Shown: positions 5,139 through 53,973 of the stretch, in pieces | How the letters are laid out: every line of letters starts with the position of its first letter | Numbering within the stretch: the first letter of the stretch is position 1 | DNA from: a virus | Length of the DNA stretch: 64,000 nucleotides | Direction: 5' to 3' (one strand) | Virus record (IMG/VR): IMGVR_UViG_3300045988_176431 | Coordinates: 32,001-96,000 of that record | Program-made: the position numbers and the translations under genes | Notes under the pieces: model-generated | What the model saw: the letters and a program-made list of their open reading frames with translations, nothing else | What the model was told of the DNA's origin: nothing | The model's database searches: none

Positions 5139-5913
5139 TGTTGTAAATAGCACCCTTATCTAGTAATAGATATTGAAAAACCTATCTAATTGCGGGGAAC
5201 TCTCGTTAGGTCTTAACTACTAACTCAAGATTATTATTTGAGGGCAAAGGGTAATTCCGGAGATATAGTAAAAAGGTTAAGAATAGAGACAATCGACGCA
5301 GCGAAGTTTATTCTAAAAAATAAATAATATGAAATATAAAGAATCAATAATTTTTATAAACGGTGAAAAAAACAAATTATTTAGTTAATACAAAAGGTGA
5401 TGTTATTTCTTTATGTTATAGAGGTATACCTAATAATAGGCATATTATGAAATGAGTAAATTATCTGAATCAGATGTTAAAAATATTTGTAAATTGTTAA
5501 AAAGTAATGTAAATCCAACTGACATTGCAAATAAATTAAATATATCAAGATCAAGTGTTTATAGTATTAAATATAAAAAAACTTGGAGAAGAATATCTGA
5601 TAAGTATTTAAAAGGAAGTGATAAAAAATGATTAGAAATAATATTCGCCGTTTATATTTAAATTATATTATTTAAATATAGAATAAATAAGTTCAACGAC
5701 TATCGAAAGTATAGGTTAAGAGAAATACTTAACTGAATAAACGAGTAGAGTAGACCAGGAGTCTGGGTGCACGAAATTGGTGCTTTACGAAATGGTAGGC
5801 TCCTTATATTTGGTAACAGAATATAAGGATGAAGATATAGTCTAGTATCTCATGGCGACATGAGGAAGTTTATTATAAAACTGGGTTATTTAACGAATAA
5901 TCTGAATACAACG
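5139..5913 (+). mobile_element. group I intron A (decayed homing-endonuclease ORF in a loop)
   Basis: Shared intron core (TAATTGCGGGGAACTCTCGTTA ... AGAGACAATCGACGCAG ... CAACGACTATCGAAAG ... AAGATATAGTC). P1 pairs GGTGT with GCACC, with a terminal U-G. Splicing gives GEFGV-GLTVTNALSS, matching GyrB GGLHGVGASVVNALS. Confidence 0.85.
5329..5631 (+). pseudogene. degenerate HNH homing endonuclease remnant
   Basis: A short N-terminal stub MKYKESIIFINGEKNKLFS* is followed by a 59-aa ORF (5452..5631). That ORF, SESDVKNICKLLKSNVNPTDIANKLNISRSSVYSIKYKKTWRRISDKY, is homologous to the helix-turn-helix middle module of the two intact intron endonucleases. The HNH domain is missing. Confidence 0.7.
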
Positions 5914-8047
5914 AGGATTGACAGTAACTAATGCCCTCAGTTCATATTTTAAGTTAGCAACATATAGAAATGATTATGTTCATATTATTGAGTTTGAAGA
6001 GGGTAAAAAGATTAATGATGTGAATCGTCCTTTGAAAAAAGGAGAAAAGAAACATGGAACCATTACTGAATTTACTGTAAATGAAAAATATATGGGAAAG
6101 AATTCATCTCTTCCAATTGATACAGTAGTAGATTGGATTGATATGATGACTTATCAAATATCTGCTAAGATTAAAATCACAGTAGATATTTACGATGGTA
6201 TTAATCGAGTAGAAACAAAGAAATTTAAGGCTAGACCATTTGGTAAAATCATTGAGAAATTCGTTCCTGATATTAAGAAAGTTTTCTATGATCCAATTAT
6301 TTTATCTGGTGATTCTAGTATTGTTGAAACAATTACAGATTCAACGATTGATAGTAAAACGGATAAAGTAAAAGTAAAAGATAAGAAAGTGAAAAAAGAT
6401 ATTCATTTGGATGTTGTATTTACACATGATGATACACCAGAAAATGATTATGTATCTTTCTGTAATTTTACAAAGACAGATGAGGGTGGTGTTCATTTAG
6501 ATTCTGTTGAAGAGGTTGTTTGTCGTTTCTTCCAACAGAAAACAAAATCTTTTATGACAGATAAAGAAAAAGAGAAATGGGACATTACTTGGGCAGATAT
6601 TAAGTATGGACTTAAGATGGTTGTAAATCTTTCAACAAGTGCACAAGTTCAGTTTATGGGTAATGCAAAGAATAAAATTCAGAACGCTGAATTAAAACCG
6701 ATTCTGAAAGAAATCATTAATACTGAATTAACGAAGTATTATGAAAAGAATGAAGGAAAGATTCAAAGTATATGTAAACTGATTAAGTTGAATGCAAGAG
6801 CACGTGTAGAATCTCAGAAAGTTCGTACAGCAACGAAGATTCAAAAATTAGACCGTTTTGATGAACTTTCAATTCCTAACTATGTAAGTTGTAATAACAG
6901 AGGAAAGAAGTATAAAGAATTATTCCTTGTAGAGGGTGAACGTTCTGCAACAGGTTCTGTTCGTAATGGTAGAAATCACGATACACAGGCAATCTTTGGA
7001 TTCCGAGGTGTGACAAAGAATCCATATAAATGTAGTGTAAGCGAAGTTCTAAGTAACAACGAGTGGAAGAACTTTATAAAGGTATTAAGAACTGGATTCG
7101 GAAAAGATTTTGATATTAATAAATTATATTATGACAAAATCATTTTGTTAACAGATGCCGATATTGATGGATTTTATATTTCATCTGGTATTTGTGCATT
7201 TATTGCACTTCTTATGCCAGAGATTATTACAGAGGGTCATTTATACAAAGTATATCCACCATTATATCAGATTAAGGATGGAAAGAAATTTAAGTTCTTA
7301 AATTCAAAATCTGATTTAACAGAAGAATTCATGAAGAAAGTTACAAAGAAATATAAGATTTATCTTCAAGGAGATAAGAATCCTTTATCAAAGGATGAAC
7401 TTTTTGAGTTCTTATATGACACGCTTGAGTATTATAATGATTTGAAAGACCTTGGTAAATATTTCTCAGTGGATAAATATTTCATTGAGAGAGTTGCTAA
7501 CTTCTTATTAATTAATGATATTCACAAAGCAACAAATGTAGATAAGTATTTAGAAAGTAATAAATTCGTTACTTCTTTTATGAACTATTTACAGAAAGAA
7601 TATCCAGAAGTAAATCTGGAAAAGAAAAATCGTTTACGTGGTGTAGTAGAAGGACAGATTGCATCAATTAAGATAAACGATAGAAATCTTAAGAAGTTCT
7701 CTGATTTTGAGAATATCTTTAAAGATTATGGTTATGAAATCGTGATCGAAAATAAGGATACAAAGGAAAAGAGAACAATTACAGTCGGTAGATTTATGGA
7801 GGAAACTTATCCATTACGTCCAGATATTTATAGCCGATTTAAAGGACTTGGTGAAACTGATGCTGAAGATATGGGTAAAACTACGCTAGATCCAGAGAAT
7901 CGAATCTTAGTTCAACTTACGATGGATGATGCAAAAGAAGCATTGAAAATCTTTAATAAGTTAAATGGTAATAAAAAGAAGGATTCTGAACTTCGAAAAG
8001 AAATGATGCGTCAGTATAAGATTGATAAAGAAAATCTGGATAACTAA
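5914..8047 (+). CDS. gyrB: type IIA topoisomerase subunit B, exon 2
   Basis: Contains the TOPRIM motifs ELFLVEGERSA and LLTDADIDG. The C-terminal GLGE motif is in YSRFKGLGETDAED. Confidence 0.9.
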
Positions 8048-8064
8048 AAGGAGGGTGAACAGAA

Positions 8065-52379: not shown

Positions 52380-52742
52380 AGAATTAGAGTGTCGCCGTTA
52401 AACCTATCTAATTGCGGGAAACTCTCGTTATGTTCTAGTTACTAAACTAAGATGGTGACATACTTAGTGGCAAAGGGTAACTCCTAAGGTATAGTAAAAA
52501 GACTAGAAATAGAGACAATCGACGCAGCGAAGTATCTTATAAGTATAAGATATGAGTTCAACGACTATCGAAAGGATAGCATAAGAGAAATACTTATGTG
52601 AATAACTGAGTAGAGTAGACTAGTATATATAAATACTAGGTGTACGAAATTTGTACTTTACGAAACGGTAGGCTCTTTATATTTGGTAATAGAATATAAA
52701 GATGAAGATATAGTCTAAACTTTATGGATAACATAGAGAATG
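52380..52742 (+). mobile_element. group I intron G (ORF-less)
   Basis: Shared core. P1 pairs GGCGAT with GTCGCC, with a terminal U-G. A 7-bp P10 pairs TTAGAGT with ATTCTAA, fixing the 3' site at G52742. Confidence 0.8.
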
Positions 52743-52895
52743 ATTCTAATTCAGAAGATGCATAGTAGTGGTGTATTCCGATTTGATGATAACATCAACG
52801 ATATGGATTTCTTTTCAAGGTTCAAATTCACGAATAAAGGACCTCACTCTGCAGGACAAAAGAATGGAAATAGTGTTGGTGTTAAGTACAGGGGT
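52743..52895 (+). CDS. RNA polymerase beta-like subunit, N-terminal half, exon 3 (153-nt micro-exon)
   Basis: SGVFRFDDNINDMDFFSRFKFTNKGPHSAGQKNGNSVGVKYRG is collinear with beta [41 protein letters not shown]. Confidence 0.75.
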
Positions 52896-53973
52896 ATGGT
52901 TGAATGCTCCTGTAAAACTCTTCTAATTGCGGGGAACTCTCGTTAAGTCTTAACTACTAACTTATGATAGTAATATACATAAGGGCAAGGGGTAACTCCT
53001 AAGGTATAGTAAAAAGGTTAAGAATAGAGACAATCGACGCAGCGAAGTATCTTCTATATATAAAATGGAAAGGAGGCAAAATCAAATGAAAAAAGTAATT
53101 GATTGTAAAAGAGTGATGCATGATAATATAAAATTAAATTATTTTATATTTACTGATGGAAGTATATTTAATGCTACAACTAATCATGAATTAAAACAAT
53201 ATAAAGATAAAGATGGATATCCTACAGTTTGTTTATCCAATAAAGGAAAACATTGGACAATTCATGTTCATCGATTAGTTGCGTTAACATTTATTCCAAA
53301 TCCATTAAATAAACCAGAAGTTAATCATATAGATGGTAATAAATCAAATAATGATATTAGTAATTTAGAATGGGTTACTGGAAGTGAAAATGTAAGACAC
53401 GCCTATCTCAATGGTTTACATGATAATGTAGCGATTGGTGAGAAACATGGTATGAATAAATATACTGAAAAACAAATTAAACATGTTTGTCAATTATTAG
53501 AAGAAAATTCTAATACACTCAATGAAATTGCTGAACTAACAAATGTTCCAAAATCAACAATTCATGATATTATATCAGAAAAATACTGGACTCATATTTC
53601 TAAAAAATATAAAATATCAAATTTTGATAAAAAATCTATTAGACGGTTAGATTCTCAAATGAAAAATGAAATGAGATATCTAATAAGAAAAGGATATCGT
53701 CAATGTGATATTTTAAGACATTTTAATTTAGAGACTAGTAAAAAGAATTATGGAATGATTAAAAGATATTATTATAAAATAAAAGAAGATACAAGTTCAT
53801 CGACTATCGAAAGTATAGGTTAAGAGAAATACTTAACTGAATAAACGAGTAGAGTAGACTGATCAATCAGGTGCACGAAATTGGTGCTTTGCGAAACGGA
53901 GAGCATATTATATTTGGTAATAGAATATAATATGAAGATATAGTCAGGTTATACAGTGATGTGTAAGTTTTAG
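52896..53973 (+). mobile_element. group I intron H carrying an HNH homing endonuclease gene
   Basis: Shared core. An 8-bp P1 pairs ACAGGGGT with GCTCCTGT, with a terminal U-G. P10 pairs GGTTGAAT with ATTCACCC. Splicing gives VKYRG-IHPSMIGYID, matching VRDVHPSHYGRIC. Confidence 0.85.
53086..53823 (+). CDS. HNH homing endonuclease (intron-encoded)
   Basis: RBS AAGGAGG 8 nt upstream of MKKVIDC. HNH region EVNHIDGNKSNNDISNLEWVTGSENVRHA. HTH modules. The 3' end runs into the conserved intron core. Confidence 0.85.
   Translation: MKKVIDCKRVMHDNIKLNYFIFTDGSIFNATTNHELKQYKDKDGYPTVCLSNKGKHWTIHVHRLVALTFIPNPLNKPEVNHIDGNKSNNDISNLEWVTGSENVRHAYLNGLHDNVAIGEKHGMNKYTEKQIKHVCQLLEENSNTLNEIAELTNVPKSTIHDIISEKYWTHISKKYKISNFDKKSIRRLDSQMKNEMRYLIRKGYRQCDILRHFNLETSKKNYGMIKRYYYKIKEDTSSSTIESIG

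Follow-up and report, generated by a model that had tools for sequence, protein, structure and literature searches.

Eight probable group I introns of a single family in six essential genes of an uncultivated AR9-like jumbo phage

The window analyzed in this study is a 64,000-nucleotide (nt) stretch of viral DNA, positions 32,001 to 96,000 of the IMG/VR virus record IMGVR_UViG_3300045988_176431, whose gene content identifies its source as an AR9/PBS1-like jumbo phage, uncultivated and with two multisubunit RNA polymerases (RNAPs). Eight related elements, referred to here as introns A to H, were found in six genes of the window, which encode DNA gyrase subunit B (GyrB), the large terminase, the virion RNAP beta subunit and the beta'-C, beta-C and beta-N subunits of the non-virion RNAP. 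We consider it highly probable, at roughly 92%, that these elements are group I introns of one family in six essential genes and that they are spliced in the way proposed below. The group I interpretation had been put forward in a preliminary description of the sequence. It is supported here by scores with the Rfam group I model, covariation, pairing of the 5' exons with guide sequences inside the introns, a terminal G and continuity of the joined exons, which was checked against the AR9 chains 7S00_c, 7S00_C and 7S00_D, AR9 GyrB and an empty terminase site in a sister genome.

The family core is about 320 nt long and is present in exactly eight copies in the window. The 11-mer AAGATATAGTC had eight exact occurrences, one in each claimed copy, and 12 matches when one mismatch was allowed, compared with 2.8 expected. 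Similarly, AGAGACAATCGACGCAG with up to three mismatches occurred seven times, compared with 0.04 expected; copy B, the eighth, carries CAATCCGCAG at that position. A profile hidden Markov model of the aligned cores, run on both strands with filters off and E <= 10, recovered the eight copies, and neither a ninth copy nor any other match was found with it in the window. The matches to B, C, E, F and G were contiguous (E-values of 1e-71 to 4e-98), and A, D and H were each matched in two halves around an insert. All eight introns are immediately preceded by T and have G as their last base (omega G). With the preceding T, the terminal G and the stop-free joined open reading frames (ORFs), the eight copies and the coordinates first claimed for them proved exact to the base as splice boundaries, and their summed length, earlier put at about 5.1 kb, was 5,070 nt, or 7.9% of the window. 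Moreover, the last 5-9 exon bases pair with a guide sequence located 10-20 nt inside the intron to form P1 in all eight copies, with a U.G wobble at the 5' splice site in each. The guide sequences are eight distinct ones, each complementary to its own 5' exon. The P1 of intron A, for instance, reads GGUGU/AGCACC and includes this U.G wobble. Inteins were ruled out by stop codons in all frames inside the elements, and miniature inverted-repeat transposable element (MITE)-like DNA repeats were considered and rejected. Rfam scans of the window (E <= 1) gave only chance-level microRNA-type matches to other RNA families and no group II intron, and no transfer RNA genes were found in the window.

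Excision of the introns gave six ORFs without any internal stop. The non-virion RNAP beta-N gene contains three introns and the other five genes contain one each. Restoration of a conserved motif, claimed earlier for the joints at introns A, B, D, E, F and H, was confirmed at every one of them, and the insertion sites coincide with the most conserved motifs of each enzyme. The spliced non-virion RNAP proteins aligned to the AR9 chains without gaps across every junction, and the spliced GyrB and virion beta were continuous over their junctions with AR9 GyrB and g189, respectively. Six of the eight introns (B, C, E, F, G and H) are in phase 0, A is in phase 2 and D is in phase 1. In the descriptions that follow, a slash marks the junction in the spliced protein, and all features are on the + strand unless stated otherwise.

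The GyrB gene (4771-8047) is interrupted by intron A (5139-5913; core halves with E-values of 9e-40 and 2e-50) at GEFGV/GLTVTNALS, a site that we take to be the ATP lid. Its two exons encode a spliced protein of 833 amino acid residues with the Pfam domains HATPase_c, DNA_gyraseB, Toprim and GyrB_C, which aligned unbroken to AR9 GyrB. The large terminase gene lies on the - strand (19468-22049) and also consists of two exons, encoding 732 residues after splicing (PHROG terminase large subunit, E-value of 1e-41). Its intron B (20758-21140, - strand), which is without an ORF, is located at FTCTP/GD, just downstream of the stretch LLHFDE, presumably the Walker B motif. The two exons of the virion RNAP beta gene (25916-31157) encode 1,624 residues (PHROG 3148, E-value of 2.5e-128) and are separated by intron C (29873-30239), which is without an ORF and is located at GSKIA/KNVIG. 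Both the PHROG RNAP-beta profile and AR9 g189 aligned straight through this junction.

The three remaining genes encode subunits of the non-virion RNAP. The beta'-C gene (34376-37791; two exons, 700 residues) contains intron D (35229-36541; core halves with E-values of 2e-42 and 5e-45). The joint restores ARKPL/IMNKK..GNAGYF, the site corresponds in the alignment to the GARKALITN...NSGYL region of AR9 beta', and the spliced protein aligned across the junction to PDB 7S00_D with an E-value of 4e-46. The beta-C gene (42104-44771; two exons, about 749 residues; 7S00_C, E-value of 5e-90) contains intron E (43256-43673, without an ORF), which interrupts the most conserved beta motif, GRxGNKG in the alignment; the junction GHKFTG/RYGNKS aligned to AR9 GSKITGRYGNKG. 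The beta-N gene (50819-54381; four exons, 582 residues; 7S00_c, E-value of 5e-52) contains introns F (51245-51617), G (52380-52742) and H (52896-53973; core halves with E-values of 2e-46 and 3e-45), of which F and G are without an ORF. They are located at NYYLI/YQM, FPGD/ILIQ and YRG/IHPS, respectively. At the intron F junction GKNYYLI/YQMVE aligned to AR9 GNRYYPIYQLLD, and at the intron H junction KYRG/IHPS aligned to AR9 KLRGLHPS.

Two further features of these RNAP genes were observed. The virion RNAP beta of the window (25916-31157) combines in a single ORF the counterparts of two separate AR9 loci, g189 (beta-N) and, after it, the RNAP part of g078 (beta-C), which join at about residues 1381-1390. 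Intron C does not mark this split point, which lies about 65 residues downstream of it. Upstream of beta-C, an unannotated ORF of 251 residues (41348-42103) is in frame with beta-C exon 1 (42104 onward), with one stop codon between them. Since the AR9 alignment begins at residue 22 of the downstream ORF, the two are probably abutting genes.

Five of the eight copies reached the gathering score of 50 bits of the Rfam group I model RF00028. They are B (86.2 bits, E-value of 1.5e-20), C (61.3 bits), F (59.9 bits) and G (57.1 bits), scored in whole-window scans, and E (65.6 bits), which was scanned alone. In addition, the folding z-score of intron G was -3.2. The eight cores were aligned with MAFFT after removal of the inserts (alignment A1), and a structure was drawn by hand that comprises P3, P4, P5, P5a-c, P6, the P7 pseudoknot (GACUA/UAGUC), three hairpins in the P7.1/P7.2 region and P8. 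RNAalifold alone misdrew the P7 region because of the pseudoknot, and this region was redrawn by hand. The pairing scores cover P3-P8; the P9 and P2 registers differ between copies in the MAFFT alignments. In the eight copies, 99.3% of the 573 cells of 74 pairs were standard-paired, and 34 of the 74 pairs showed compensatory changes on both sides. When the 3' partners were slid by 1-3 columns, only 35-46% of the cells were paired and at most five pairs were compensatory. P3 alone had four compensatory positions among the eight copies. The structure was also scored on 39 family members, drawn from the window, the sister contig and further IMG/VR contigs; here 91.5% of the cells were paired and 59 of 73 pairs were compensatory, compared with 36-43% of cells paired in the slid controls. 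The helices that the preliminary description had named as co-varying are real and are located in P5 and P5a.

About 100 nt separate P7 from the 3' strand of P3. This segment contains three covarying hairpins (A1 columns 239-260, 281-300 and 303-317) and is treated as an insertion by the Rfam model. Such a block with P7.1/P7.2 hairpins suggests that the family is of IA type. The closest reference sequences found with blastn were introns of K/Twort-like Staphylococcus phages and of a Vibrio jumbo phage, with about 72-74% identity over 175-200 nt. The P7.1/P7.2 hairpins and the similarity to the K/Twort-like introns thus point to subgroup IA, probably of the phage IA2-like kind.

In the mechanism that we propose, transcription of the gene would run on through every intron in it, and each intron would fold at the RNA level into the P3-P9 core. 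P1 would then be formed between the copy-specific guide and the final 5-9 bases of the exon, where a U.G pair would mark the splice site. Free guanosine would attack after the U of this pair, and the freed 3'-OH of the exon would attack after the terminal G, by which the exons would be joined in frame. The endonucleases predicted in introns D and H would nick intron-less alleles in co-infecting relatives, and repair of the nicked allele would copy the intron together with some flanking exon. The copies without an ORF would rely on recombination or on endonucleases supplied in trans. We infer the catalysis itself, the activity and specificity of the endonucleases and the route by which the ORF-less copies would spread from features of the sequence.

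The inserts of introns D and H in the P6 loop each contain a gene that is predicted to encode an I-HmuI-type HNH homing endonuclease. The gene in intron D (35429-36346) encodes 305 residues with NUMOD4, HNH and helix-turn-helix (HTH) regions and has AAGGAG 8 nt upstream of its ATG. Its product matched Pfam NUMOD4 above the cut-off (2e-8) and PHROG 59 HNH endonuclease (7e-36), and HNH_3 at 21.4 bits, under the cut-off of 24.8. The gene in intron H (53065-53823) is an ORF of 252 residues with HNH and HTH regions, which probably starts at the ATG at 53086 following AAAGGAGG, giving 245 residues. It matched HNH_3 at 41.9 bits (cut-off 24.8), PHROG 59 (1e-46) and I-HmuI (PDB 1U3E, 9e-12). The two endonucleases are 34% identical. 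The 3' end of the H ORF extends over the P6 3' strand, J6/7 and the P7 5' strand and reaches into P7.1, by which coding sequence and ribozyme core overlap. Intron A contains, also in the P6 loop, a 355-nt segment (5318-5672) with the remains of a decayed endonuclease gene, namely short N-terminal frames and an HTH fragment of 59 residues (ORF 5452-5631), the HNH part being lost. The remnant matched HTH_7 and the PHROG 59 HNH endonuclease family weakly, tblastn with the D endonuclease gave a match at 5464-5607, and the whole segment is missing from the sister contig. No free-standing paralogues of the intron endonucleases were found in the window.

The copies are mosaic, as the nearest neighbor of a copy differs module by module. 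In intron H, P5b-c is identical to that of C, the region from the 3' strand of P5a through P4 is identical to those of A and F, P7-P7.1 is 98% identical to those of A and E, and P8 is 97% identical to that of F. Similarly, A and E have identical P7-P7.1, the P8 of C and D are 95% alike and the P9 of B and E are 87% alike. Profile scores within the window family ranged from 220 to 320 bits. The P5 extension of intron E was even swapped between genomes; it is a long P5b-c in the window (43330-43385) and a short B-type one in the sister (L123 19580-19600). Recombination among copies would keep the core homogeneous while P1 stays site-specific.

The sister genome is represented by the 249-kb IMG/VR contig IMGVR_UViG_3300045988_176405, whose exons are 97.8% identical to those of the window over 16.4 kb. 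Seven intron sites are shared, one is occupied only in the window and six only in the sister, so that 7 of 14 sites differ. Sites A, C, D, E, F, G and H are occupied in both genomes, and the sister copies are without the A, D and H inserts. Site B in the terminase gene is precisely empty in the sister, which encodes the same TCTPGDLD and has five synonymous changes within 8 nt of the empty site. When the exact exon-intron junctions of window intron B were sought in the IMG/VR collection, no match was obtained, which indicates that the window is not part of the collection searched. The sites at which only the sister has an intron include a second terminase site (between 19864 and 19863 of the window), with a 1,205-nt endonuclease-bearing intron; a second beta'-C site (36576/36577), 35 nt downstream of D; and the site at 40828/40829 in the gene for a UvsX-like recombinase (40008-41261; PHROG 97, E-value of 1e-33), which is uninterrupted in the window and holds, in the sister, a further intron of this family with an endonuclease gene. 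The others are three beta-N sites (52832/52833, 54027/54028 and 54037/54038), and the sister beta-N has six introns in 1.75 kb of coding sequence. Among more distant IMG/VR relatives, L003 (55% amino acid identity) has only the G-site intron, and L001 and L002 (45% identity) have none.

Exon divergence between window and sister was 2.24% overall, 3.2% at shared intron sites and 11.1% within 20 nt of polymorphic sites (binomial p = 5e-13). Such flanking divergence is what would be left by homing with co-conversion or by recombination with a divergent intron-less allele, and it fits gain and loss alike. Presence/absence polymorphism at identical sites and altered flanking exons, the marks of mobile introns, were thus both found. 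The empty sites in relatives and the range of endonuclease genes, from complete through decayed to missing, would cover every stage of a cycle of gain, decay and loss.

Several additional features of the sister contig were observed. A 10-nt exon, CCAGGCACAT (L004 6242-6251), lies between two introns of the sister beta-N (L004 5860-6613) in the motif CGNSD/PGT/SGLL, and a 35-nt exon (L123 11222-11256) lies between the two introns of the sister beta'-C. The 3' end of the sister UvsX-like intron (L123 15874-17076) is ambiguous: the nearest G adds one Tyr codon compared with the window protein, and a 3' end that preserves the protein would not be G. Beyond the match to the window, the sister contig contains three further tandem cores within 1.4 kb (111628-117480; L065 3060-4460), which brings the sister genome to at least 16 family copies.

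Several observations weigh against the reading of the eight elements as spliced group I introns. Splicing was deduced from DNA sequence rather than from transcript or protein. In the window, introns A, D and H scored 29.4, 23.8 and 20.9 bits with RF00028, below the threshold. These low scores are attributable to the P6-loop inserts of 355, 956 and 704 nt, respectively, and the insert-free orthologues on the sister contig passed at 69.7, 57.5 and 63.0 bits. P4 and P7 are invariant and thus provide no covariation evidence, and P7 is fixed in the 39-member set because the search pattern used for collecting the set covers it. None of 500 shuffles attained the pairing and compensation values of the eight copies, a control that is inflated because the copies are related; the slid controls are unaffected by this. 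At J6/7-P7, intron H alone reads TTCATCGACTA, with T for A, where the others read TTCAACGACTA. Because of this substitution and the overlap of its ORF with P7/P7.1, ribozyme autonomy is least certain for H. Finally, five of the eight copies, namely B, C, E, F and G, have no endonuclease gene that would account for their movement, and the window has no free-standing paralogue of one. The substitution and core overlap in H, together with the 355-nt decayed insert in A, also bear on whether all copies act on their own. In vivo, many group I introns splice only with the aid of proteins, and some of the copies here might depend on a protein cofactor or maturase, a host factor or the product of another copy, or might be defective and tolerated. 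We regard such dependence as unlikely, given that the helices are paired in 99.3% of cells across all eight copies, that the sequences of P4, P7 and J8/7 are intact in 8 of 8 copies and that the host genes are all essential, so that a copy that did not splice would be lethal.

A different explanation is that nothing is spliced and that the elements are repeated non-coding spacers between truly split genes, whose pieces would each be translated on their own and then assemble. Split RNAP genes are known from jumbo phages, and the borders of several copies look suited to it. C, D, E and F meet a stop codon of the exon frame at the first intron codon (TAA or TAG at 29873, 35228-35230, 43256 and 51245, respectively), and six copies, B to G, end with an in-frame start-type codon exactly at the 3' junction. 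This codon is TTG in B (20758-20760) and C (30237-30239), GTG in D (36541-36543, formed by the terminal G of the intron and TG of the exon) and ATG in E (43671-43673), F (51615-51617) and G (52740-52742). As a consequence of these border codons, ORF finders list the exons as separate ORFs. However, the junctions lie inside single conserved motifs, and codons are cut at the junctions in phases 1 and 2; a fragment of just 51 residues would result in one case; no clear ribosome-binding site was seen before the junction start-type codons; the sister terminase encodes the same protein sequence without the element; and an RNA fold, site-specific guides and a terminal G serve no purpose in a spacer. 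The probability that the elements are such spacers is therefore close to negligible. The same border codons fit a published idea on the origin of split RNAP genes from introns, which is proposed in literature cited in PMC7598289. Accordingly, the intron ends might act as gene-splitting cassettes, where an unspliced message would yield two assembling polypeptides and the introns would be fission intermediates of split beta and beta' genes. We rate this as very improbable, because ribosome-binding sites are not evident and the 3' UG may be a simple family trait. To our knowledge, living intron intermediates of RNAP gene fission have not been shown so far.

If the elements are spliced group I introns as described, they may still have spread mainly by means other than endonucleases encoded in cis, such as endonucleases acting in trans, whether those of D and H or others encoded elsewhere in the genome, reverse splicing into new RNA sites followed by reverse transcription or general recombination of co-infecting strains. 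The absence of an ORF from five of the eight window copies and most of the 13 sister copies speaks for this, as do the different sites in genomes with 97.8% identical exons and the movement of modules between copies. On the other hand, the guide differs in each copy and fits its own site, so that a recent reverse-splicing jump from a sister copy is not visible; no paralogous pair is near-identical over its full length; the clustered flanking substitutions are a classic trace of homing at the DNA level; and a reverse transcriptase was not seen among the larger window ORFs scanned. We give such a mainly endonuclease-independent or trans-acting spread a clearly smaller probability than homing by endonucleases encoded in cis.

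Two observations concern regions outside the interrupted genes. The 367-nt gap at 46571-46938, between an ORF ending at 46571 and an SbcC-like gene, was considered as a possible intron and rejected; it is an ordinary intergenic region of terminator and promoter, with two strong terminator-like hairpins back to back at 46575-46660. In addition, the sister contig contains a gene for 119 residues with an HExxH motif (L124 14352-14719) that is not found in the window (15867-15888). It is flanked by direct repeats of a ribosome-binding region (ATGAAAGGAA.TGATGATTATG).

The introns of the window are a further example of a situation known in AR9-like phages and not a new phenomenon, and they leave the knowledge of how such introns work unchanged. 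What they provide is a clean example, resolved in full, of a giant phage whose genes for transcription, replication and packaging are saturated by one group I family, including three non-virion RNAP genes that are intron-free in AR9. Because the sister genome has a different intron complement, intron turnover can be studied well in this lineage as a natural system. Exons of about 98% identity with 7 of 14 sites differing amount to a natural experiment on intron gain, loss and recombination in viruses. Moreover, the comparison bears on intron endonucleases as weapons between co-infecting jumbo phages, as in PhiPA3 (PMC11620839). For annotation, automatic gene callers will fragment these genes, because most of the introns end in a start-type codon.

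Introns related to those of the window by sequence or architecture are found in several phages. The T4 introns in td, nrdB and sunY belong to group IA, like those of the window, and have an endonuclease ORF that is likewise looped out from the core. Spontaneous domain exchange between introns of one genome, matching the mosaic pattern of the window, was reportedly described by Bryk and Belfort in 1990. Different from the window, the three introns in the 169 kb of T4 interrupt three different genes, and their endonucleases are of the GIY-YIG type or defunct. Over about 175 nt, the window introns are about 73% identical to the polA intron region of phage K-like phages, with which they share the IA-type core, and the H endonuclease is homologous to I-HmuI (PDB 1U3E) of the SPO1 DNA polymerase intron. 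In Twort, orf142 contains three introns of one family in a single gene. The host genes of the Twort/K-like and SPO1 introns, however, are those of DNA polymerase, nrdE and orf142, and the reference records had matches at 1-2 places per genome at blastn sensitivity, compared with eight copies in the 64-kb window.

Jumbo phages offer further comparisons. In PhiPA3, the HNH endonuclease gp210 encoded by an intron nicks gp178 of a co-infecting relative and confers a competitive advantage (Birkholz et al., 2024; PMC11620839). By analogy, a similar role against sister strains that lack those introns is conceivable for the D and H endonucleases. PhiPA3 differs in belonging to the nucleus-forming phiKZ clade and in having a single intron, and the function is experimental there and inferred for the window phage. 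In MarsHill-like Staphylococcus jumbo phages, introns are found in several RNAP subunit genes and in the genes for the large terminase, DNA gyrase B and DNA polymerase, and exon number and boundaries vary among close relatives (Korn et al., bioRxiv 10.1101/2020.12.14.422802). Those introns, however, were predicted from protein alignment only, the non-virion RNAP beta-N is unsplit there and the proteins are about 24-25% identical to those of the window.

The closest parallel is AR9. Like AR9, the window phage is a uracil-DNA-type jumbo phage that has both a virion and a non-virion multisubunit RNAP, and group I introns interrupt many essential genes in each of the two phages (for AR9, Lavysh et al., 2016, as cited in bioRxiv 10.1101/2020.12.14.422802 and PMC12350094). 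AR9 also has a group II intron (PMC12350094). No DNA match to 12 kb of the window was found in reference phages with megablast, and AR9, PBS1 and other AR9-like phages, whose non-virion beta-N is unsplit, have about 24-33% protein identity to it; with about 30% protein identity to AR9, the window phage thus has no close cultured relative. The intron families also match weakly, at 19-52 bits, compared with 220-320 bits within the window. Four of the six genes interrupted in the window, namely those for GyrB and for the non-virion beta-N, beta-C and beta'-C, are uninterrupted in AR9. The annotation of the AR9 intron ORFs names endonucleases of the VSR, Hef-like and HNH-AP2 types, whereas the window ORFs are of the I-HmuI-like HNH type. 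The suspicion voiced in the preliminary description that introns in RNAP genes of this lineage might already be known was right, as they are documented for AR9 (KU878088) and the MarsHill-like phages. Its view that such a density in a single family is exceptional, however, has to be given up. The feature table of GenBank KU878088 gives, for the first 200 kb of AR9, at least 18 introns with as many as five in one gene, the last 51 kb lying outside this count. The joined coding sequences consist of three exons for GyrA, g078, virion beta'-N and g205, two for the prohead protease, five for the large terminase (TerL) and six for virion beta-N, which corresponds to four introns in TerL and five in virion beta-N. 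Comparison of AR9 with itself further showed that its introns are one multi-copy mosaic family, with shared segments 75-100% identical. Finally, the fourth TerL intron of AR9 is inserted at the same codon boundary as intron B of the window, TTTP/NDLDT in AR9 and TCTP/GDLDT in the window.

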